In this document: positions 1 to 16,215 of the stretch, in pieces
How positions within the stretch are numbered: the first letter of the stretch is position 1
How the letters are laid out: each line of letters begins with the position of its first letter
DNA from: a virus
UHGV virus genome: UHGV-0343389
Length of the DNA stretch: 26,271 nt
Direction: 5' to 3' (one strand)
Made by a program: the position numbers and the translations under genes
The notes under the pieces: generated by a model
Told to the model about the DNA's origin: nothing
Database searches by the model: none
Seen by the model: the letters and a program-made list of their open reading frames with translations, nothing else

Positions 1-1
1 G

Positions 2-343
2 GATATGTGTGCACATGCAAACAAAATTGCATCAGAAGCAGGAAAGTCACTTCCCATAAAATTGAATGATAATATGTCTATTGTTTCAATAAATGCAATA
101 CTAAACAAACTCTTAGTTGTAGCGCATCTTAATTACAACAACAGCTATTTATCAAAAGTTTATAATGGTGATGTAACCTTAGAAAATAAATTAAAGAGTG
201 TAATGCGAAATTATTCAAAATCGAGCATTTGCTCCAACAGGCAAATGAAAGCATTTATTCACCTTGGCGGAGAGATTGAGTATAGGTATGTATTTAGTGA
301 TGGCAATATATTTGATACATACGCCATCACTAATTGTGAATAG
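2..343 (+). CDS. 5'-truncated AT-rich hypothetical protein (C-terminal 112 aa visible); convergent with the virion module
   Basis: Open frame from the window edge to TAG at 341-343. Visibly AT-rich against the neighbouring operon. Its stop abuts the stop of the 1129-aa minus-strand gene (TAGCTA). No recognisable motifs. Confidence 0.45.
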   Translation, partial: DMCAHANKIASEAGKSLPIKLNDNMSIVSINAILNKLLVVAHLNYNNSYLSKVYNGDVTLENKLKSVMRNYSKSSICSNRQMKAFIHLGGEIEYRYVFSDGNIFDTYAITNCE

Positions 344-3300
344 CTATTTCATCTGCTCTTCAACTTTATTTAGTAACGGTGATATCGCCCACAGGTTCTG
401 AAAAGGTAGCATTTTACGGACCGCGTGGGTTTGCTGGCTGTCAAATTCTCCGTTAAGTACACCATTCGCAACCGTCGCGGCATCACCGCCAAGATCAAAG
501 GTAGGACCAAGTAAAGCACCAATAGCATTACGACTCTGAAACCTTGATACCGGAGGCGCACCAAACATCGCGCCAAGACCAAACCTACCGCCGCTTATGT
601 TCTCAACGGTATTCAGCGGCTCAGAGAGCCAGCCAAGCATTCCGCCCCGGTCGATCCCCTCTTTCACAAGGTTATTCCAGCTGTAGTCGATATCGCGACC
701 GCTTAACTTCTGTTTCATCATATAGACCATTGAGCCAAGCGCAATCGTGCCAAGCGCACCAAGATAGAATGCAGCATCGCCCTGCTGGATACCAGATACT
801 AGCACCCTGTTATGCTGTGCGAAGATAAACGTTTTGAACTGCGTGATCATCTTCCAGCCTTCTTTACTAAAAAACAGCGGTGTATCACCTACGCCAGGCG
901 TTACAATCACTGAGTCTACATCTTTCAGCACTGCAGACTGGAAAATCTCTCTAGCGAAACGGTCATCCCACAGATGACTATGCCCGGTTAACAGCCCGTC
1001 CATATCCTCTCCGTGCTTCCCGAATTGCTCCCCGATTCGGCGCAGAACATCTTCATTGATGCCGACCTGTGCCATCTTCCGCATTTCACTTTTGGAGAGC
1101 GTGCCACCAGCAGAAACTTGGCGAGCCGCGTCAAGTATCCTCGACTGCACTATCATCCCGGACCATGATTTAAGTGCGCTGTTCCACTGATTCATCAGCG
1201 TCCAGTTACCGAATTTCTGCGTCATCCAGTTCAGACCTCGCTCAGCGGCGCTTCTCCGGCTATAGGGGTCAGTAAGATCCGCTATAGCCTTTGTACGCGT
1301 AGACAGGACATAATCAAGCCCAACGGCCATTTCTCGCAAATCCCTGGTTGCAATTTTCACTGAGTCCATATTTTTAAGCATGCTTACCATTGGTCCGAGA
1401 GATTTTCTCAGGCCATGCTGCATCATCGGTCGCATCAGATCAGTTGCAGCGGAGACAGTCATTCCACCAAGCAAACGGAGGAAGTTAATATTCCTAGCAA
1501 CTCGCCCGGCACGAACAAAGAAACTGCGTGGATCTTGAGGTGCACCGTAAGTACCAAGCAGTCGATCACGCATAGCCGTAATATCCCTAATATCAGCCTC
1601 CCGTTGCTTCTCAAGAACTGCACGTCGTTTAGGTGTTTTAGCCTCTTTTATTAGCCGGGTATATTCCTCACTAACCTGACGGATTTGCTCCCCCATATCT
1701 TTACGGCCAAACTGCGCAGTCAGCTCAATTTCTGGTGCCACCTGCCGGAGATAACTTTCCATGATGTAGTTAACATCTGATTCAAGAAAATCTTCTATAC
1801 GCTCATCAGGAATAAGCAGCGTTCTGCTTTTAGTGAAACCAGCCCGACCAACGAGTCTCTCTGGGATAATATCGGCTGGTACAAGCCCGGAAGGTGCGCC
1901 TATTATTTTATTCACGATCTCGTCAGCAGCGTCCTCTGCTTCCTCTCGGGATAGAGGCTCCATCTGCTTCAGTGCTCGTTCGCGGCTTGCATTCAGCCTT
2001 GTGGTTGAATTTGCCCGTTTTTGCAGTCGGCGAAGCTCAGAACGATATTTCCGTGGATTATCCAGCAACTCCATATGGCGCTGATAGACAGGAAGCTCAC
2101 TCTTTGCCTGCGCTATATCATCAAGGCGTGTTTTAAGGTCAGAGCTTTCTTTCATCATTCTTGCCTGAAGTTTTTCTGATGAAGTCTCGGCCAACTCTTT
2201 TTCTATTCTTGTAAGACGCGCCTGTGTGTCAGTCTCCTGAGATATAAGCTTATTTCGTTTATCCAGTTCTTCCATAAGTAGAATTTTTTTACCAGACCAT
2301 TTCTCCGCTTCAGCGATTTCACTAGCGAGAGCATCAGCGCGCGGTGCCGATTCCTCTGCAGTTTTTAGCAATGAATTTATCCTTTCAATTCGCTGACCTG
2401 CTTTGTCAGCACCTTTGGCACTAATCCCTTGTATCCAGTTGGCAATTCGCCCTCTGAATTCAGTGCGGTCGGAAAGTATCTTATCGAACTTATAAATGCG
2501 GGGAAGATAACTTTTCGCCGTCACGACATCGATATCCTCAGGAAGGATCCCCAGTTCCTGCATACGGGCTTTTGTGGTCTCGAAAATGGGGCGGATTCTG
2601 GCGGCTGCTTGTGAAACCTCAGGAATATCACTCTGATCACCACGGCGCATAGCCATGCCAACAGCTTCATTGAAATCAATAAAGCTCATCCTCTTCACGC
2701 CGCGGGCGCTAACAGATTTGCTGTACTGCTGGTAAGCATCACGAGTGGCTTCCATCTGCTTATAAAGCATGGCGTCGTATTGCTTAATCTTAGTCTCGAC
2801 TGCCGTAAACGTAGCCAACCCCTCATCATTTTTGGCGAAGAAATAGTTATTTTCGGCAAGCTGCTGGTTAATCTGACGGGAGACAAGAGATGGTGATTGA
2901 GCCAAGCGGCCAGCAGGAGTGACACTCAACGTTTTGTTAGCAAGTCCAAGTCCAGCGAGCTGTTCCTGATCGAGTGTGGTATTGAAAACCTGAGCTGCAC
3001 CAATGCTTTGAGGAGAATCCATACCTCGCAAATGATTACCTACTGAGTTAACCACTGCCTCGCGCGCGCTAGGTCCAGCAAGTAGCTGTGCACCAGCACC
3101 AAGGATCCCACCAACGAGAGCATCAACAACAACGTTCGATACGCTCTCCATCGGTGAGCGAGCTTCCTGAGTGGCCTGTAATGCGGCTTCTGATACTCCC
3201 CCACCAGCAGCATTCGCTAGGGCAAAACGCCCTGCCGTCTCAGCAATACTTCCTCCACGCGCTACCGCCCCTACAGGGATGAACATTGCAGCCACATTAA

Positions 3301-3733
3301 CCGGGTCTATCATTCCCATTGCTAAGCTTGAAATAGTACCAGCACCACCCATTTCAGATAGATATTCTCTATCTGTTCTTTGCTTATCGATTCGATGTTT
3401 AATTGCCATTGTTTCTTCATGCGAACCGGAGTTGATAAACGAATCTGCAAAATCTTCATAGCCTTTAATATCTGCTGCATCGTTATCAAATGGGTTATAT
3501 CCTTCAACCCTGTCAAACTGACTGAAAGGAGCACTGGCAATAAAGCTACCCAGCGTGTTATCTATACGAAATGCTGCTTGTCTAGACCTTTGAACGCGTT
3601 GATCACTGGTAAATGGGTTCACAGCAGAAAGCAAAGAAGGTGTTTCCATATAGAAATTACTGTCATCAGGTGCTGCTATTTGCTGAATATCCTCGCCAAG
3701 CAACTCTTTAGGATTCTGTTCATATATCGGCAT
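344..3733 (-). CDS. Large internal virion / DNA-ejection protein (T7 gp16-like by position and size)
   Basis: 1129-aa ORF, last gene of the co-directional virion operon, start overlapping the upstream stop. Long coiled-coil-like central region and hydrophobic C-terminal segment. Assignment is by synteny and size only. Confidence 0.55.
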   Translation of the reverse strand: MPIYEQNPKELLGEDIQQIAAPDDSNFYMETPSLLSAVNPFTSDQRVQRSRQAAFRIDNTLGSFIASAPFSQFDRVEGYNPFDNDAADIKGYEDFADSFINSGSHEETMAIKHRIDKQRTDREYLSEMGGAGTISSLAMGMIDPVNVAAMFIPVGAVARGGSIAETAGRFALANAAGGGVSEAALQATQEARSPMESVSNVVVDALVGGILGAGAQLLAGPSAREAVVNSVGNHLRGMDSPQSIGAAQVFNTTLDQEQLAGLGLANKTLSVTPAGRLAQSPSLVSRQINQQLAENNYFFAKNDEGLATFTAVETKIKQYDAMLYKQMEATRDAYQQYSKSVSARGVKRMSFIDFNEAVGMAMRRGDQSDIPEVSQAAARIRPIFETTKARMQELGILPEDIDVVTAKSYLPRIYKFDKILSDRTEFRGRIANWIQGISAKGADKAGQRIERINSLLKTAEESAPRADALASEIAEAEKWSGKKILLMEELDKRNKLISQETDTQARLTRIEKELAETSSEKLQARMMKESSDLKTRLDDIAQAKSELPVYQRHMELLDNPRKYRSELRRLQKRANSTTRLNASRERALKQMEPLSREEAEDAADEIVNKIIGAPSGLVPADIIPERLVGRAGFTKSRTLLIPDERIEDFLESDVNYIMESYLRQVAPEIELTAQFGRKDMGEQIRQVSEEYTRLIKEAKTPKRRAVLEKQREADIRDITAMRDRLLGTYGAPQDPRSFFVRAGRVARNINFLRLLGGMTVSAATDLMRPMMQHGLRKSLGPMVSMLKNMDSVKIATRDLREMAVGLDYVLSTRTKAIADLTDPYSRRSAAERGLNWMTQKFGNWTLMNQWNSALKSWSGMIVQSRILDAARQVSAGGTLSKSEMRKMAQVGINEDVLRRIGEQFGKHGEDMDGLLTGHSHLWDDRFAREIFQSAVLKDVDSVIVTPGVGDTPLFFSKEGWKMITQFKTFIFAQHNRVLVSGIQQGDAAFYLGALGTIALGSMVYMMKQKLSGRDIDYSWNNLVKEGIDRGGMLGWLSEPLNTVENISGGRFGLGAMFGAPPVSRFQSRNAIGALLGPTFDLGGDAATVANGVLNGEFDSQQTHAVRKMLPFQNLWAISPLLNKVEEQMK

Positions 3734-6480
3734 TATTTGCCCCCTGCGTATATATTGCTCGGAAGGTAATTGGCTGAACCATAACCGAATGGTTTGGTCA
3801 GATCTGGAGGAGTATATCCATCTTTATTGCTGAACTGCGGCAGCGGATTGCCTTCTCTCCGCACTCTAGCCTCATCAACACGCTGTTGCTGTAACTGAAT
3901 GGTTTGCCTGTACATTGGAGATGTCAGTTGATCCGGCTTGAAACGAACAGGGAGACCATTTTCTCCAATATAATTTCTCGGTTCTATCGCTCCGTTTGCG
4001 TCAGGCTGTAAAACCATAACAGCATAACTCCTATCCCTTGCCGTAAGGCCATCAGAAACAAGTATTAAGTCCGTATCACTGCGAGGACCGCCAAAGGATT
4101 TTGATTTAAGCTCGCGTTTTTCCTGCTCCCACTGCCCCTGTATCCAGTTACCAGCACCATTATTTACTCCGTACAATGCCTCAGGTGCATACTTCATAAC
4201 CTCTGCTTTGCCATTAACCGTAGAAACTCCCCAGGTGGTTCTGATCATGGCATTGGTCATTTTCTCAGCCTGTTCTGCATCGCCACCTGTCTGTACAAAG
4301 TTAGCATCGTAAATTGTCTGGTAATCTCGCTGATAGGCCGCATTTGATTTTCCTGGATCGGTAATATCCGGAGACCACGAACCAAAGGAAGTCAGACTGC
4401 TGGCGTTATTTTGTGCAGCAGTTGCCCTCGCCGCGACATATTTTTTGTCTCGCATGGCAGTGGAAAGCATCTGTTTCATTCGGTCATCCTGTTGGAACAC
4501 CTGGCTGTAAGCCATATCAACAGCCTTATCCTCCGGCACGCCAGCGCGGGAATAATCGTAAACCTTGCCGTAAAATGCCATCGTACTTTTATCAAGTGTT
4601 GCCGCTGCCGCCGGATTATTATCGAATAACTGACCGTAGAATTTTGCCATCGGGACAACCAGCGCAGGATCTCTTGATGTTGCTCCACTGTTAAGCATTG
4701 TTTTAACCTGAGTTGGTATCATGCCGCTTTTAGTTGTGACGGTGACCAGTGTATTGATGCTCTGCGGATCAGATATGGAAAACGAAGGCGCGATATCCTG
4801 CGCGAAATAACGGTCTACCGCTGCCTGATTGTTTTTGTCGTTCGGGTCCAGCGGGAAGTTATTTTGCATTGAAGACACGAACCTGTTTCTTCCCTGCTGA
4901 ATCTCCCACTCCCTATCCATCTCTTTAAATTTGGCCTGCATTTTCTCCCAGCGTTGCTGGTTAGCAGCAAATCCAGGAGCGTTTGGATCCTGTGGACGTA
5001 AACGTTCAAGAATGTCTTGTCGTCCTTCTGGAGTGAGGTCTTTAGCGGCACCAATGACACCTCCATATTGTATCTGCGCCTGCATATCCTTCCACTTCAT
5101 AGCGCCAATGCGCGGACCATTGGCCCGGATAAAATCGTCCTCAGAAGGTAACTTCTCAGGTTTCAATCCTTCATCAAGGGCTGAATATGCATCTTTAACT
5201 ACGGTGCTAAGCTGGTCCGCATACTGCTGGCGGTACTGATTTCTCAGCTCATTAGCCTGCCTCAATGCCTGTATTTGCATTTGAGGGCTCATAGCATCAA
5301 ATGCCGCATTGCCCGTATAACGCTTAGGTGAATCAAGGTTAGTTAGACCAAGGGCTGCCGAGATACCAGTTTCAAGCTGTTCGGTGCTATAAGGCATACT
5401 GCCATTTTCGTGTTTAATAATCCCAGCACATAAAGCAGCTAGTGTCTTTGGGTTAGAGATATCAAGCTGATCATTCTCCCCAACACCAAGCTCACCACAC
5501 AATGCCCTAATATAAGCATCAGTATTATTACCATCACTAGCCGGAGCATAGCGATTAACAATCTCGCTAACGGTGTCATAGCCTTGACGCTGGTAAGACA
5601 ACATATTTTTACCCAACGCGCGGATTCCATGCTCAGGGGTAGCAAACGTTGCAAAACGTCCATCGCTACCGATCTGACCTTCCCACGGGTTAGATTTGCT
5701 CGCTTCAATATTACCAGGGTTATTATTACGTAAACCACGAGCATCCAATGAATTACCATGTGATATTGCACGACTCACACCACCAAGATCCCCTGGCTCT
5801 CCATTAACCTGAAGAAACTCGTTGTATTTTTGAGCGATATTTCCTATCCATGCTTGCTGCCCCATTTGTTCCTTGAGCTGAGTTTTCTGCTGAACACGCC
5901 ACTCATCAGGAAGCCCATGCGCATCAGCGTATTGATCAATAGATTCAAATCGCTGCTTGGCTAAATCGACAAATGCTTGGTTATCGCTATATAGCCCCGC
6001 AGACTGAGTGACAGCCAATGCATTTCCTGACAAATACGTTTGATCTTGGAATTGCTGAAACTGCCCAACTTCATATCGACGTGCCTGATTGTAATAAGAC
6101 TGCATAGACTGCTGGAGTTGAAAGGATAATTTATTCCTTTCCTCACTTTCAGGGATTGAGCCTAATAATGCCTGAGCCCTTTCCTGCATATTTTTCATAA
6201 CAGCGTCACTCTGACCAAGAGCGTTTTTACCCTGTTTAGAAATCAGCCCATTTTCAGGGTTGTTAATCTGGTCATCTGCAAATTGGTTAAATTGCAGTAA
6301 CGCCTCCTGGGCCATAGCAACATTCGCTTTCTGCCTGGCTTCACCATATGCCACCGCATACTGATCTGCGACATTCGCCAGCACCTGACCTGCTTGAGGA
6401 ACATCGAAGGTCTGAAAACCACCGGTTTGCACACCACGACTTTGCACCTGGCGTCCGGATGTAGTAGGAACAACAGGCAT
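3733..6480 (-). CDS. Internal virion core protein (T7 gp15-like by position); central conserved block, possible cell-wall-active domain
   Basis: 915-aa ORF between the gp14-like and gp16-like genes, translationally coupled at both ends. Contains the block GLRNNNPGNIEASKSNPWEGQIGSDGRFATFATPEHGIRALGKNMLSYQRQGYDT. Function inferred from position. Confidence 0.5.
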   Translation of the reverse strand: MPVVPTTSGRQVQSRGVQTGGFQTFDVPQAGQVLANVADQYAVAYGEARQKANVAMAQEALLQFNQFADDQINNPENGLISKQGKNALGQSDAVMKNMQERAQALLGSIPESEERNKLSFQLQQSMQSYYNQARRYEVGQFQQFQDQTYLSGNALAVTQSAGLYSDNQAFVDLAKQRFESIDQYADAHGLPDEWRVQQKTQLKEQMGQQAWIGNIAQKYNEFLQVNGEPGDLGGVSRAISHGNSLDARGLRNNNPGNIEASKSNPWEGQIGSDGRFATFATPEHGIRALGKNMLSYQRQGYDTVSEIVNRYAPASDGNNTDAYIRALCGELGVGENDQLDISNPKTLAALCAGIIKHENGSMPYSTEQLETGISAALGLTNLDSPKRYTGNAAFDAMSPQMQIQALRQANELRNQYRQQYADQLSTVVKDAYSALDEGLKPEKLPSEDDFIRANGPRIGAMKWKDMQAQIQYGGVIGAAKDLTPEGRQDILERLRPQDPNAPGFAANQQRWEKMQAKFKEMDREWEIQQGRNRFVSSMQNNFPLDPNDKNNQAAVDRYFAQDIAPSFSISDPQSINTLVTVTTKSGMIPTQVKTMLNSGATSRDPALVVPMAKFYGQLFDNNPAAAATLDKSTMAFYGKVYDYSRAGVPEDKAVDMAYSQVFQQDDRMKQMLSTAMRDKKYVAARATAAQNNASSLTSFGSWSPDITDPGKSNAAYQRDYQTIYDANFVQTGGDAEQAEKMTNAMIRTTWGVSTVNGKAEVMKYAPEALYGVNNGAGNWIQGQWEQEKRELKSKSFGGPRSDTDLILVSDGLTARDRSYAVMVLQPDANGAIEPRNYIGENGLPVRFKPDQLTSPMYRQTIQLQQQRVDEARVRREGNPLPQFSNKDGYTPPDLTKPFGYGSANYLPSNIYAGGK

Positions 6481-7058
6481 CAGTAACCTCCTATTTTGAA
6501 TCGGGAGTCAGAATTCATAAAACCTGAGTTAGATAGCATTGGCGTCCCACCACCAGATGTACTTCCTTTAGAGAACGGGCTCCACGTTCCGCCGCCCATC
6601 TGGTATGCACCGTATGCTTTTAGTGGTGCCGTTAACAAAGTGCTGGTCATCGATGATTTAGCAGCCGACTGAGCAGCAGCCCCCTGTGCCTGAGCATTCA
6701 TTCCCTGAACCTGATACCCATATGCCTCACGCTGAGCATTATTCACTGTCGTTAACGCATCAAGAGTGCCGAACTGAGCATTATCCGCAAAAACGTCAAG
6801 AGCTGTTCCGCTACTTAATTCCGCACCGGTAGCCCCCATAGTGGCCGCCGCAGTACCTGAGCGTTGACGCATTTCACGACGACGCTGATCCGCTTCAATA
6901 TTCCCACGATTGATTGAATCCTGTGCCTGAGCTTCAGCAATTTCAGCATTCCGATCAGCTATGGCTGACTGGTATTTTGCCTGCTTGCTCTGGCTGTACA
7001 TTGACGCGGCTGTGGATGCCACTGTGACGGCAACCAAAGCGATGGCTGGGTTACACAT
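6480..7058 (-). CDS. Internal virion protein (T7 gp14-like)
   Basis: 192 aa with hydrophobic N-terminus (AIALVAVTVASTAA) followed by an Ala/Gln-rich low-complexity region. Size and position match gp14-type core proteins. Confidence 0.5.
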   Translation of the reverse strand: MCNPAIALVAVTVASTAASMYSQSKQAKYQSAIADRNAEIAEAQAQDSINRGNIEADQRRREMRQRSGTAAATMGATGAELSSGTALDVFADNAQFGTLDALTTVNNAQREAYGYQVQGMNAQAQGAAAQSAAKSSMTSTLLTAPLKAYGAYQMGGGTWSPFSKGSTSGGGTPMLSNSGFMNSDSRFKIGGY

Positions 7059-7522
7059 TATTTTCTCTCCATGTGAAATCTGTGGAAATTAAGACCAAGA
7101 GCACCATAAGGCGCGGCTTCTTCAAGCCTGAATCCAAGCCAGTGCAGCCATGATTTGGCAACATGGTTTCGCTCGTCGACGTAGTTTTCCAGGCGCGGAT
7201 AAACTGCCAGCATCTGGTGCAATACAGGGCGGCAGTGGCGCAGAAATGTCTTCTGATATTTTTCAATATGGCTGGTACCGACCAGCCAGGGCGTACCATT
7301 GCCACCGATCATTGACGCCGGAGATACACCAAACATGGTTACCAGTTCTCCGTTCGCGAACCCTGACCAGGCCATAGTCGCAGTGCGAAGACCAACACGC
7401 AGCGCATCTTCGGTAGTCATCAGTGATACCGCATACAGTTCGTCAATATCAGCTTGACGAACATCCGGCAAAATCATCTGAAGATGCTCTTCGGTAGCGG
7501 GAATAATTTGAACGTCGATCAT
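7058..7522 (-). CDS. Hypothetical virion-module protein (gp13-like position)
   Basis: 154-aa ORF. ATG at 7522-7520 overlaps the TGA stop of the 823-aa gene. No recognised motifs. Confidence 0.4.
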   Translation of the reverse strand: MIDVQIIPATEEHLQMILPDVRQADIDELYAVSLMTTEDALRVGLRTATMAWSGFANGELVTMFGVSPASMIGGNGTPWLVGTSHIEKYQKTFLRHCRPVLHQMLAVYPRLENYVDERNHVAKSWLHWLGFRLEEAAPYGALGLNFHRFHMERK

Positions 7523-9993
7523 CAGAATCCCCCAACAGTAAGGCGAGGAATAACGGCAAGAACAGACAGCGGCAACGGGTCAAGCTGACGGATTTTTACA
7601 CGTCCGTTTTTGCCCCAGTTACTGTCCAGTTTCACTTCTACTTTTCCGGTAGCATCATCAACAGGATCATCGTAGAACTCGAATTCACGCTGTGGATATT
7701 CGTACCATTTACCGCCGGGCGTAGTCGCCCAGATGCCGCGACTGGCATTCACAACCAGAGTAACGGACGGGATCACCTGTTTTTTGTCCAGCAGCGTTTC
7801 CTGTCCGTTAATGTTGATATCCAGTGTTTCGAATTCAGCAGTTATTGGCAGGCCGATGTGCACTACAGCCCCCGGAGATTCCAGCGTGACGGCACCTCCG
7901 GAAACCACTTTCTGTGGCTCCACGTTCGCATCAGAGAGAATGTTTACGGTCTGGCCTTCAAGATGAGACAGGCCTCCAAATGTCCGGCGCGCCATCTGCC
8001 AGTTCGTGGTGGCCACATTCCTGAGGGATGGCGGGACGTTCCTGTTAGCACGAACCACTACAGCGGTATTGCTGGTTACAGAAATAATGTCGCAACGTAA
8101 TTCTTTTGACACTTCATCGCCAGTATCAGGATCAGTTCCGACATAAGGGAACTGTAGTTGCGCGCCGACATCACTACTGGTGAAGTACGCACCACCAGAA
8201 ACACTGATTGTATATTCCGCGCGATAATCCCATTCGCCAGAACCACCAGTGATGGTCATCGTTCTGTCAGACGTATTTCTTCCATCATAGCTAAGGCCAG
8301 AATCAACAAAGAAAGCATCTTCATCGCTGGTAAATAAACGGCTAGACAGTCTCTCGATGTATCTCACTGTTTGCCCGTTAACGGTTCGGTTAACGACGAA
8401 ATACACCGCATCTTCATTGCCTTCGCTGATACTGCATGTGCTTTCATATTTTCCGGTACTGGACTGTGGTGCCCATGCAAAAACCTGTTGATCACGCAAA
8501 TAGGTCATCACCAGTAATTTACCGTCATCACGGATGCAGAAGGCGCTGGAGTAAGGGACTATCGAGAAGCACCAGTCAACAATGCTGTGCTTCTGAAAAA
8601 GATGATTGGCAAGGATGGTCAGGTCGTTCCCCTGATAGCCGTCAACATCGAATGAGTAGGCCAGATCACGGACAACGCTGCCTTTCTCCTGGACAAACAG
8701 AGCAATATTCGCCACAGCAATTGGTGGGACGTTGCTTGAGCCATTTGATCCCTGAGAGCTGAATGCAAATGATGATGGGGTTAACACTTTGTTCTGGTCG
8801 CCGGTGATGACGTACTCACCTCCGGAAGTCAGCGCCACCAGCGAACCGACATCAATCAGGTGGCGGATCTCATTAACCTGACGTCCGGCATAGGTGTAGA
8901 TAATTCTGTCGTCATCCTGCGTAGGATTGCTTTTGCCAAAATCCTTATAATCCCCGGTACGGCTGGCCCAGATAGTCTGAGGGAACGCAGTCGATGCGGC
9001 GAAGTAAAGACGTTGTTGATAATAAACAACAGTGCCAGGATAACCATTAACACTGTTCCAGGCATATTTAGCCCATTTATAGCTGGCATTATCCTCGCCA
9101 ACGACCTGCGAAGGGATATAGGAAATCACCTCGGCAGTTGCAGTAGTGCCGTTTACAGCAGTGATACGGGCAATGCCAAAACCACTGTGCAGATACTCCC
9201 ACTCAATGCCAGTATCATCATCACCGGATCCGCCCCAGCCATCCCATGATGTGCCTTCTGTATGCGAAGGGCGCAAAGTGCCTGTTTTGCCTGCTGTAAC
9301 GGCGCGATAGTAGTTACTGTCTGCACGGCGAATATCGCCAATCGACGTACTCTTACTGGTTTCCCATACCGGCACTGAATCCACTGCAGGCTGTTCCAGA
9401 TAGAACAATTTGCCTACCTGCTCCGCGCCAAAAATAGAGGCGCTTGCCGTTAACGTAATTGTCCCGGTGCTGGCGCTGGCATAAACCGTCACTGACTCGT
9501 CAATATTGATATCTTCAAATGGCCCGTTCTTCGTTACCACATCAACCAGTTGCCAGTTGTCATGCGCATAGCGGCGCAACTCTTTCGGCGGGTATGCCGG
9601 GTGAACCAGCGTAAGCACGTCGGCGCTTTGCGTAAATTTAATTCGGAACAGATCGGCTTCAGTATATGGCGTGGCAATTTCATAAATAACATTGCTGCTG
9701 TTCAGCACCAACGCACCATCTTTGATAACGCGCATGTACTGGTGTCCGAACTCCAGAGCATAGGTCTGAACAGTCGAGAACTGGAACGGGATCAGGCGGC
9801 ATTTCCGATTTGGGTATTTGGCGGCACCGACAAAACGCGTACCAGGTCGATTCTCAACGCCGCCATACTGCCGCACGATAAAGTTATCGCACTTGCGCAA
9901 TGCCACCTGGTACTTCGCCATGTCGATACGACCGTACAACGACGGTCCAATCTCACCACCGGCAAAGCTGGGCTGGATCCAACTGATAGCCAT
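7522..9993 (-). CDS. Tail tubular protein B (T7 gp12-like)
   Basis: 823-aa ORF directly downstream of the gp11-like gene. Size and order match the podovirus tail tube B/nozzle protein. Confidence 0.55.
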   Translation of the reverse strand: MAISWIQPSFAGGEIGPSLYGRIDMAKYQVALRKCDNFIVRQYGGVENRPGTRFVGAAKYPNRKCRLIPFQFSTVQTYALEFGHQYMRVIKDGALVLNSSNVIYEIATPYTEADLFRIKFTQSADVLTLVHPAYPPKELRRYAHDNWQLVDVVTKNGPFEDINIDESVTVYASASTGTITLTASASIFGAEQVGKLFYLEQPAVDSVPVWETSKSTSIGDIRRADSNYYRAVTAGKTGTLRPSHTEGTSWDGWGGSGDDDTGIEWEYLHSGFGIARITAVNGTTATAEVISYIPSQVVGEDNASYKWAKYAWNSVNGYPGTVVYYQQRLYFAASTAFPQTIWASRTGDYKDFGKSNPTQDDDRIIYTYAGRQVNEIRHLIDVGSLVALTSGGEYVITGDQNKVLTPSSFAFSSQGSNGSSNVPPIAVANIALFVQEKGSVVRDLAYSFDVDGYQGNDLTILANHLFQKHSIVDWCFSIVPYSSAFCIRDDGKLLVMTYLRDQQVFAWAPQSSTGKYESTCSISEGNEDAVYFVVNRTVNGQTVRYIERLSSRLFTSDEDAFFVDSGLSYDGRNTSDRTMTITGGSGEWDYRAEYTISVSGGAYFTSSDVGAQLQFPYVGTDPDTGDEVSKELRCDIISVTSNTAVVVRANRNVPPSLRNVATTNWQMARRTFGGLSHLEGQTVNILSDANVEPQKVVSGGAVTLESPGAVVHIGLPITAEFETLDININGQETLLDKKQVIPSVTLVVNASRGIWATTPGGKWYEYPQREFEFYDDPVDDATGKVEVKLDSNWGKNGRVKIRQLDPLPLSVLAVIPRLTVGGF

Positions 9994-16138: not shown

Positions 16139-16215
16139 GTGGCATTAGCTCAGCTGGACAGAGCAACCGCCTTCTAAGCGGTTGGTCGCAGGTTCGAATC
16201 CTGCATGCCACGCCA
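16139..16215 (+). tRNA. tRNA-Arg (anticodon UCU), phage-encoded
   Basis: Cloverleaf folded by hand: acceptor GTGGCAT/ATGCCAC, D-stem GCTC/GAGC, anticodon stem ACCGC/GCGGT with loop CTTCTAA, T-stem GCAGG/CCTGC with loop TTCGAAT, discriminator G and encoded CCA. 77 nt. Confidence 0.9.

Follow-up and report, generated by a model that had tools for sequence, protein, structure and literature searches.

The window, a 26,271-nt stretch of viral DNA (UHGV virus genome UHGV-0343389), opens with the larger part of a temperate-podovirus moron, which codes for a Sec-exported, non-lipidated protein with a predicted AspS/PA3611 fold and occupies a fixed slot at the position of sieA; we hold this joint description with high confidence. 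As to function, we put forward tentatively that prophage expression provides a soluble binder in the periplasm, which may protect the lysogen against superinfection.

The first-pass annotation had described an AT-rich gene that converges on the end of the virion operon, the two stop codons touching, and both observations stand. The plus-strand stop directly adjoins the stop of the 1129-aa protein gene (Table 1) within TGTGAATAGCTATTTC at 335-350, and the GC content (32% against 48% in round figures) is 31.9% in 2-343, 48.2% in the 344-3733 gene and 48.9% in the whole window, bases 2-343 being the lowest-GC stretch in all 26 kb. The 112 codons counted at that stage are correct if the count begins at the ATG of base 5, an internal one that encodes Met35 of the full-length protein, but the frame is open from base 2 and contains 113 sense codons; at the local base composition, a stop-free run of this length has a chance probability of about 6e-5. 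Related genomes place the true start of the gene 98 nt upstream of base 1, so that the window cuts into it, and give a full-length product of 146 aa (WP_000595048.1). This product matches phrog_8772 (E 2e-79), which is annotated as of unknown function. The plus-strand ORF is a real gene, given its homologues in at least six genera, the conserved signal peptide and four cysteines, a dN/dS of 0.21-0.24 and a confident structure model. With 0.03-0.07 for the neighbouring gene, this dN/dS indicates that the ORF evolves fast while purifying selection acts on it. A tblastn search of 50,697 phage records retrieved no copy, and a scan of GTDB with one genome per species, in which the broad family alignment was too divergent to be used, returned no relatives.

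Table 1. Positions of the features discussed, in window coordinates unless a related prophage locus is named.
Feature	Position	Strand	Remarks
AspS-like gene, codons 34-146 and stop	2..343	+	3' three-quarters of a 146-codon gene
Conserved Cys36	8-10	+	
Weak terminator-like hairpin	226..247	-	inside the AspS-like gene; related prophage locus L001 12247-12226
Conserved Cys110	230-232	+	
LGGEIEY motif	263-283	+	
Conserved Cys145	335-337	+	
Abutting stops TAG/CTA (TAGCTA)	341..346	+/-	plus-strand TAG 341-343, minus-strand stop CTA 344-346
1129-aa internal virion (ejection) protein gene, last of the virion operon	344..3733	-	T7 gp16 / P22 gp16 position
915-aa protein gene	3733..6480	-	gp15 position; no family match
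T7 gp14-family internal virion protein gene, 192 aa	6480..7058	-	PF24072, E 1.8e-8
Tailspike gene	4776-7334		related prophage locus L001
Endosialidase tailspike gene of IHE3034	4432-7551		related prophage locus L002

The gp14-family gene anchors the positional reading of the 915-aa and 1129-aa genes that follow it. Calling the 1129-aa protein gp16-like, as had been done, is reasonable by position, and by position only; all that its database label, DUF919, has behind it is a marginal match over 46 residues. In every lineage examined, the 1129-aa gene is the convergent neighbour of the AspS-like gene, which faces the DUF919-like 3' end in all 27 loci examined (at least 12 lineages in the six genera Escherichia, Klebsiella, Serratia, Yersinia, Providencia and Proteus), across a gap of 0-450 nt. 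The homologues in this slot, with identities down to 29%, are AT-rich in every lineage examined, their GC content lying 5-17 points below that of the neighbour. Thus, the composition that had led the gene to be called foreign does differ from that of the virion operon, but it is not a sign of recent import. The homologues are 29-40% identical where the neighbouring gene keeps 73-79%, and all the close relatives examined (at least 29% identity) are found in prophage or viral contigs.

The slot is also a site of exchange. Among E. coli prophages, the AspS-like gene is present in 14 of 120, an unrelated 283-aa gene being present in the other 106, and the 14 genomes match the window from base 1, whereas the others among the matches listed match only from base 344. 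Judging from these alignments, E. coli prophages have exchanged allelic cassettes here, with a breakpoint that falls exactly on the stop-codon junction at 341..346. The plaque-forming phage EC.W1-9 is without the AspS-like gene, which has the divergent composition, dispensability and exchangeability of a moron. The strains that carry it have cattle, chickens and humans as their sources, and the other host genera are a mixed set. We rejected the idea that the alternative slot genes (149, 204 and 283 aa) are homologous to one another; searches of PDB sequences with the 149-aa and 283-aa proteins gave no match. A conserved two-gene system formed with the divergent 149-aa gene was likewise rejected, as the adjacency is confined to E. 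coli and Serratia: the 149-aa gene is 1.6 kb off in Klebsiella and absent in Providencia, and the smaller upstream genes of Yersinia and Proteus have no tblastn match to it.

Beyond base 1, the prophage runs on for about 10 kb. Accessory genes (BRO-N, YafO toxin) come first, then the tailspike gene and the lysis genes, and host yfgI marks the end; this temperate podovirus has its E. coli integration site between guaA and yfgI. The tailspike gene is found 4-7 kb further on, on the same strand as the virion operon, and the lysis genes come next.

A Sec signal peptide, MIKPMHAITATVLFILPIFSFA↓ND, and Cys26 are encoded by the first 33 codons, all of them upstream of the window. The signal peptide ends in SFA↓NDIC and a lipobox is absent; among homologues, the peptide is conserved, and so is its cleavage site, S-x-A↓N. 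An N-terminal hydrophobic segment occurs in 91 of 96 family members and exactly four cysteines in 65, and a lipobox-like motif is seen in six, leaving 90 without one. The Sec signal peptide would export the product, with cleavage by signal peptidase I and no lipidation, and the mature protein would probably fold in the periplasm with two disulfides.

The AlphaFold model of the product reaches a pLDDT above 90 over the mature part and shows the topology of AspS, with an N-terminal helix followed by three strands, by helices and by two further strands, and with a conserved disulfide; three of the helices separate strand 3 from strand 4. The model matches in structure AspS and EpsS, pilotins of type II secretion, and PA3611 of P. 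aeruginosa, and nothing else, with PA3611 as the top Foldseek match (E 2e-8, TM 0.80); the BFVD viral fold library gave no match at or below 1e-3. In sequence profile comparisons, hhalign matched the family profile to E. coli YghG/AspS with a probability of 71% (E 4e-5) and placed the conserved Cys110 opposite the AspS disulfide cysteine. ETEC AspS is the best, though weak, PDB match of the broad family profile, and the narrow family profile found no match among PDB sequences. PF16549 gives sub-threshold matches in seven of the 96 family members (best E 6e-4) and no match to the query itself, and the Pfam matches of the query and the family members, listed up to an E of 1, do not include DUF4146. 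When the gene and its neighbours were scanned with Pfam, NCBIfam and PADLOC, nothing came out above threshold, the PADLOC models giving no match at E up to 0.1. We read the relation to AspS-type pilotins from these profiles as remote homology, not as membership in PF16549. Members of the wider superfamily (306 representatives) are found outside prophages too, and as fusions to Sel1, TPR, AMIN or LprI modules, so that an anti-phage role is not dictated by the fold; the contexts of its distant members are short metagenome contigs and are little informative. A citation trail leading to 'quorum-sensing' viral genes was discarded, as these belong to a different Pfam family.

Regarding transcription, in Klebsiella the AspS-like gene begins 11 nt after a gene for an Mnt-like RHH repressor, inside an immI-like module, and is probably co-transcribed with it. 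In E. coli, the upstream region contains no convincing sigma-70 promoter and the divergent gene starts just 12 nt away; no consensus promoter or terminator was found on the plus strand, the scans performing no better than chance. On the minus strand, a hairpin about 100 nt beyond the stop of the 1129-aa gene (Table 1) could be the end of the late transcript, although terminator-like sites are not above chance (two found, 1.2 expected).

In the model that we favour, the AspS-like gene would be expressed from the prophage and its soluble periplasmic product would shield the lysogen from superinfection, most likely by capturing a helix in the trans-periplasmic DNA-delivery conduit that the ejection proteins of incoming related phages would build. 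In the pilotin fold, a hydrophobic groove clamps the amphipathic C-terminal helix of the partner. A mimic would clamp the C-terminal amphipathic helix of the incoming ejection proteins, stopping formation of the DNA conduit, or its target might instead be a host envelope machine needed by phages. In its boldest form, in which a soluble pilotin mimic at the sieA-equivalent slot of a widespread Enterobacterales prophage lineage would constitute a new class of superinfection exclusion acting in the periplasm, the proposal is in our view rather unlikely. It is the position matching that of sieA that makes superinfection exclusion a testable guess; however, the ends of operons collect morons with many functions, and position alone is therefore weak evidence.

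Other functions have to be weighed against this one. The product might target a host secretin (GspD of the T2SS, that of a type IV pilus or another one) and bind its S-domain, either as a decoy that blocks outer-membrane targeting or as a secretin stabiliser, with lysogenic conversion of secretion or piliation as the outcome. AspS and EpsS, the sole characterised proteins with this fold, do bind secretin S-domains (PMC3542185), Dunstan et al. suggested that soluble PA3611 might bind lipoprotein secretins (PMC3542185), and both points favour such a factor, as do the AMIN-domain fusions in some distant family members. Nevertheless, we consider it unlikely, since AspS is but remotely similar (13-16% identity), the gene is unlinked to secretion genes, and the same slot is found in prophages of Proteus, Providencia, Serratia and Klebsiella. 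These hosts have PulS-type pilotins or are not known to have a Vibrio-type T2SS, which makes their sharing of the slot an argument against a secretin target. A periplasmic immunity or inhibitor protein directed at an envelope toxin or enzyme (T6SS effector, bacteriocin, lysozyme or transglycosylase) is distinctly unlikely: there is no conserved cognate toxin gene nearby, the 149-aa neighbour is present in some lineages only, immunity proteins match in structure far less well than AspS/PA3611 do, and a match to Ntox35 is sub-threshold (E 0.03-0.06). That the gene invariably adjoins those of the ejection proteins, and shows no clear promoter of its own in E. coli, would suit a protein made during infection, for example one that chaperones the ejection proteins or tunes lysis; yet the gene converges on the late operon and is antisense to late transcription, it can be dispensed with, as the 106 E. 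coli prophages and EC.W1-9 that are missing it demonstrate, and the Klebsiella copy follows the Mnt-like gene, all of which renders a lytic-cycle function very unlikely.

Prophage morons often encode virulence factors, and this counts in favour of a released factor for host interaction or fitness, as does the closest structural relative, PA3611, for which one group reported effects on bronchial epithelial cells (PMC8860233). Since that report does not treat the role of PA3611 in the bacterium, the AspS-like product has a Sec signal only, with no known route across the outer membrane, and the sources of the carrier strains, like the other host genera, are mixed, such a factor has a slim chance of being the answer. 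Finally, the first-pass annotation had taken T7-type gene order as its template and expected a tail fibre gene here, proposing that the fragment could be either a receptor-binding protein's C-terminal end, encoded on the other strand, or a second cargo or defence locus, and it had considered a host gene past the attachment junction. The actual order is P22-like (ejection genes, sieA/immI-type accessory region, tailspike), and once extended upstream, fully annotated and searched for homology and structure, the gene was seen to encode a secreted product of 146 aa that has a signal peptide and a predicted pilotin-like fold and is not a tail fibre or tailspike, the real tailspike genes lying elsewhere. 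Comparison with related prophages likewise identified an accessory slot gene and not a tail fibre; the gene does belong to the accessory (cargo) region of the prophage, but not to a known defence family, with no PADLOC match. The prophage extends about 10 kb to yfgI, with tailspike and lysis genes on the way, which excludes the host-gene scenario, and all the close relatives examined are in prophages or viral contigs. A receptor-binding C-terminus or a host gene, favoured by the position after the ejection genes and by nothing else, thus retains next to no probability.

If the exclusion guess is true, the protein would be a purifiable soluble periplasmic factor with which the trans-envelope DNA conduit of podoviruses, short-lived and still poorly understood, could be trapped. 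It would also provide the first bacterial role among soluble PA3611/AspS-like proteins, and the slot after the ejection genes would hold entry-blocking genes also outside the P22 group of podoviruses. Even if the guess is wrong, the apparent lack of a tail fibre is explained, the prophage boundary is correctly placed, and PHROG 8772 is given a predicted fold and a predicted cellular location.

Among known proteins, PA3611 (PDB 3NPD; DUF4146) has in common with the AspS-like product that it is soluble and secreted and has an AspS-like fold with an extra helix after strand 3. Sequence identity is only about 14%, however, PA3611 is a chromosomal Pseudomonas gene whereas ours is a gene of Enterobacterales prophages, and a second conserved cysteine pair (Cys26/Cys36) is found in the prophage family and not in PA3611. 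The pilotins AspS, EpsS and YghG (PF16549) are outer-membrane lipoproteins, encoded in T2SS operons, that bind the secretin S-domain; unlike them, the product has neither a lipobox nor linkage to secretion genes. Other periplasmic or surface proteins of superinfection exclusion, for example T4 Sp and the lipoproteins Llp and Cor, are likewise small exported phage or prophage proteins that act in the envelope, and we found no sequence or fold relationship between them and the AspS-like product. In the case of P22, gene 16 is followed by the convergent sieA and then by mnt, arc, ant and the tailspike gene. The AspS-like gene thus occupies the same slot as sieA, convergent on the last ejection-protein gene and before the tailspike; genes of the mnt/arc/ant type adjoin both, and the sieA locus is variable among related prophages, as is the AspS-like slot. 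SieA is nevertheless a polytopic inner-membrane protein, whereas the AspS-like product is modelled as a soluble secreted domain, and hhalign detects no sequence relationship between SieA and the AspS-like family (probability 0.15%). The link is purely positional, and of the two it is for SieA alone that exclusion has been demonstrated. P22 escapes from SieA by mutations in C-terminal parts of the ejection proteins gp16 and gp20 (PMC10883804), and the AspS-like product would be a periplasmic counterpart of the action that this membrane protein exerts in P22.

The AT-rich plus-strand frame at the left edge of the window and the last gene of the virion operon meet stop codon to stop codon (335–350, TGTGAATAGCTATTTC), an arrangement proposed in the first-pass annotation and borne out by coordinates, frame length and GC content. 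Within the window the frame comprises 113 sense codons (the earlier count of 112 started from an internal ATG at base 5), and the chance probability of such a long open frame is about 6e-5 at the local base composition. Its GC content is 31.9%, against 48.2% for the neighbouring gene and 48.9% for the window, and no further 342-nt stretch of the 26 kb falls below 36%. The complete gene, present in a prophage of E. coli strain F2_407_2_2, encodes a 146-aa protein, of which the window covers residues 34–146; the N-terminus outside it forms a Sec signal peptide of the usual kind (MIKPMHAITATVLFILPIFSFA, followed by ND), and there is no lipobox.

Coordinates of the AspS-like gene, its neighbours and other features (L001, strain F2_407_2_2; L002, strain IHE3034; L003, phage EC.W1-9; L009, Klebsiella locus)
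Feature	Sequence	Position	Strand	Remark
End of AspS-like ORF	window	stop TAG 341–343	+	frame open from base 2
1129-aa gene	window	344–3733	-	stop CTA adjoins the plus-strand TAG
tRNA-Arg (anticodon TCT)	window	16139–16215	+	between terminase and portal regions; adjoins a Gp49-family gene
Full AspS-like gene	L001	11903–12343	+	441 nt; WP_000595048.1, annotated "hypothetical"
149-aa gene, phrog_9944	L001	11441–11890	-	outside the window; divergent, 12 nt from the 146-aa gene start
Strong terminator	L001	11427–11410	-	follows the 149-aa gene
IS3 element, truncated gtr gene	L001	4636–8575		IS3 interrupts the tail protein gene; gtr encodes a glycosyltransferase
Other tail protein	L001	4776–7334		
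YafO-family toxin gene and small gene	L001	10336–11161		small gene overlaps the upstream end
283-aa gene, phrog_6118	L002	11148–11999	-	virion strand; ends 1 nt from the 1129-aa gene; position equivalent to just left of window base 1
K1 endosialidase tailspike	L002	4432–7551		
YafO-family toxin gene and small gene	L002	8029–8968		small gene overlaps the upstream end
"Eliminase" tailspike	L003	2538–4412		
P22 immI-like module	L009	6473–7989		directly upstream of the AspS-like gene

Scans of the 146-aa protein against Pfam, NCBIfam and PADLOC gave no match, and PHROGs places it in phrog_8772 (function unknown). A word-indexed search returned no more than nine clusters at 90%, drawn from E. coli, Klebsiella and Providencia; an exhaustive profile search gathered 306 representatives at E ≤1e-3, most of them stand-alone proteins of 135–160 aa. 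Among 96 stand-alone members, an N-terminal hydrophobic segment is found in 91, exactly four cysteines in 65 and a lipobox-like motif in only six. Close homologues share Cys 26, 36, 110 and 145, Pro51 and the LGGEIEY motif without exception. In a few distant members (P0010, P0018, P0020, P0023 and others) the domain lies C-terminal to Sel1, TPR, AMIN or LprI (DUF1311) domains, fusions which suggest a general periplasmic binding module; distant superfamily members also occur outside prophages.

The AlphaFold2 model of the protein has pLDDT above 90 across the mature domain, falling below 50 in the signal peptide only, with the topology helix, three strands, three helices, two strands. Foldseek against the PDB retrieved PA3611 (3npd; E 2e-8, TM 0.80), the V. 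vulnificus pilotin EpsS (6i2v; E 6e-7) and AspS (4ftf; E 3e-6), with nothing else at E 1e-3, and the BFVD viral structure library held no match at or below 1e-3. Sequence evidence agrees weakly with an AspS-type fold: the best PDB match of the family profile is ETEC AspS (a weak E of 0.47), seven of 96 members give sub-threshold PF16549 matches, and hhalign of the family with E. coli K-12 YghG/AspS yields a probability of 71% (E 4e-5, 88 columns), aligning the LPxK motif and placing Cys110 on the AspS disulfide cysteine. The AspS fold has a conserved disulfide and a hydrophobic groove, the proposed binding site for the secretin S-domain, and PA3611, whose function is unknown, carries a signal peptide and no lipoprotein signature (Dunstan et al., PMC3542185). 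Taken together, the structural and weak sequence matches place the protein in the AspS fold group, as a remote and soluble member of the PA3611 type. It shares with PA3611 a signal peptide without a lipobox and lacks the lipoprotein character and gene context of the pilotins AspS and EpsS.

Bases 1–3000 of the window matched 120 of 5,426 complete E. coli genomes by megablast, always in the chromosome. In F2_407_2_2, guaA and yfgI flank the element, a prophage some 42 kb long. It runs from integrase and early genes through terminase, portal, protease and major capsid to the cement and staple proteins, and on through a T7 gp14-family protein and a 915-aa protein to the 1129-aa protein. Next come roughly 4.5 kb of accessory region, mostly on the opposite strand, and a virion-strand tail protein gene with gtr remnants after it; two holins, a GH19 endolysin and a DUF2514 protein close the order. 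This order is common to IHE3034, the isolated phage EC.W1-9 and Klebsiella phage ST512-KPC3phi13.3. The gene order on the yfgI side shows that the prophage extends about 10 kb past base 1, so that the host gene beyond a prophage boundary considered earlier finds no place here; the tailspike gene is displaced, not missing. The 1129-aa gene is by position the counterpart of T7 or P22 gene 16, encoding a gp16-type ejection protein, as first supposed; its RefSeq label "DUF919" (a 23.4-bit match, cut-off 21, to a baculovirus family over residues 530–575, 46 in all) is probably coiled-coil noise. The F2_407_2_2 copy, its tail protein gene interrupted by IS3 and its gtr gene truncated, is probably defective. 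Tailspike genes vary among prophages otherwise more than 97% identical, and the YafO-family toxin gene of the accessory region faces one way in one E. coli variant and the other way in the second.

We extended the comparison to homologue contigs of Providencia, Klebsiella, Serratia, Proteus and Yersinia and an IMG/VR scan. In all 27 loci, from at least 12 distinct lineages, the AspS-like gene converges on the 3' end of a DUF919-like gene of 1125–1133 aa, with abutting stops in 17 and a maximum gap of about 450 nt. Its GC content lies 5–17 points under the neighbour's in every lineage, which makes AT-richness a lasting trait of the gene: "compositionally foreign" holds for the lowest GC of the window, not for recent import. 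It diverges much faster than the DUF919-like gene, the respective amino acid identities to E. coli being 72–74% and 95% in Klebsiella, 39–40% and 78% in Serratia, and 29% and 73–74% in Yersinia. The corresponding dN/dS values (0.21–0.24 versus 0.03–0.07) indicate purifying selection, yet quick evolution.

Within E. coli the slot is exchangeable. The cassette of 149-aa and 146-aa genes occupies it in 14 of the 120 prophages and the dissimilar 283-aa gene, whose product matches nothing in Pfam, PADLOC or the PDB, in the other 106; a Klebsiella phage holds yet another gene (204 aa), without similarity to the 283-aa one. The exchange borders are the 1129-aa gene stop codon (343/344) and a terminator hairpin past a small membrane-protein gene. 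The divergent neighbour encodes a cytoplasmic-looking 149-aa protein in E. coli and a 144-aa protein, 32% identical to it, in Serratia; its Klebsiella homologue lies 1.6 kb off, Providencia has none, and Yersinia and Proteus carry other small upstream genes without a tblastn match to it. As upstream neighbours vary by lineage, the AspS-like gene is independent of any fixed partner. Divergent starts 12–24 nt apart mean that each promoter must sit inside the opposite gene; no convincing promoter for the AspS-like gene was found in E. coli.

We are thus highly confident that the gene is genuine and conserved, that its product is secreted, not lipidated and of the AspS/PA3611 fold, and that its slot in this lineage of temperate podophages is fixed, though dispensable. 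What it does is more tentative. In the P22 record a convergent sieA with its own promoter follows ejection gene 16 after 22 nt; orf59a and mnt come next and share the strand of sieA, and after them lie arc, ant and the tailspike gene 9. The prophage expresses mnt and sieA, and SieA stops DNA entry, with escape mutations mapping to C-terminal parts of the ejection proteins gp16 and gp20 (PMC10883804). The Klebsiella relatives reproduce this arrangement in a non-P22 podophage: P22_AR_N antirepressor and Arc genes lie on one strand, and on the other a Mnt-like ribbon-helix-helix gene (32% identity to P22 Mnt over the N-terminus), whose stop precedes the AspS-like start by 11 nt, with palindromic operators between the divergent genes. 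By this analogy, and from orientation and the Mnt-like linkage, the gene would be expressed from the prophage; its product might form two disulfides, bind a helix or peptide in its groove as in AspS, and interfere with the conduit by which related phages, on arrival, deliver their DNA through the periplasm. Such superinfection exclusion is possible, perhaps one chance in a few, and we offer it as a proposal open to a clear and cheap experimental test.

Other roles have to be weighed against it. We consider a decoy or stabiliser directed at secretins unlikely; slightly less likely still is a periplasmic immunity protein or enzyme inhibitor, and a helper in the lytic cycle is a little more doubtful again. 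A released host-interaction factor seems improbable. The cargo reading of the first-pass annotation survives in a general sense; its receptor-binding alternative does not, as the tail protein gene sits farther on, on the virion strand, and together with the host gene it retains a negligible probability.

We found no phage record, viral structure or paper describing a phage-borne AspS/PA3611-like protein. What is new here is a prophage moron in a sieA-type locus whose product is a soluble relative of an already known fold, whereas P22 SieA is an unrelated, multi-pass membrane protein.
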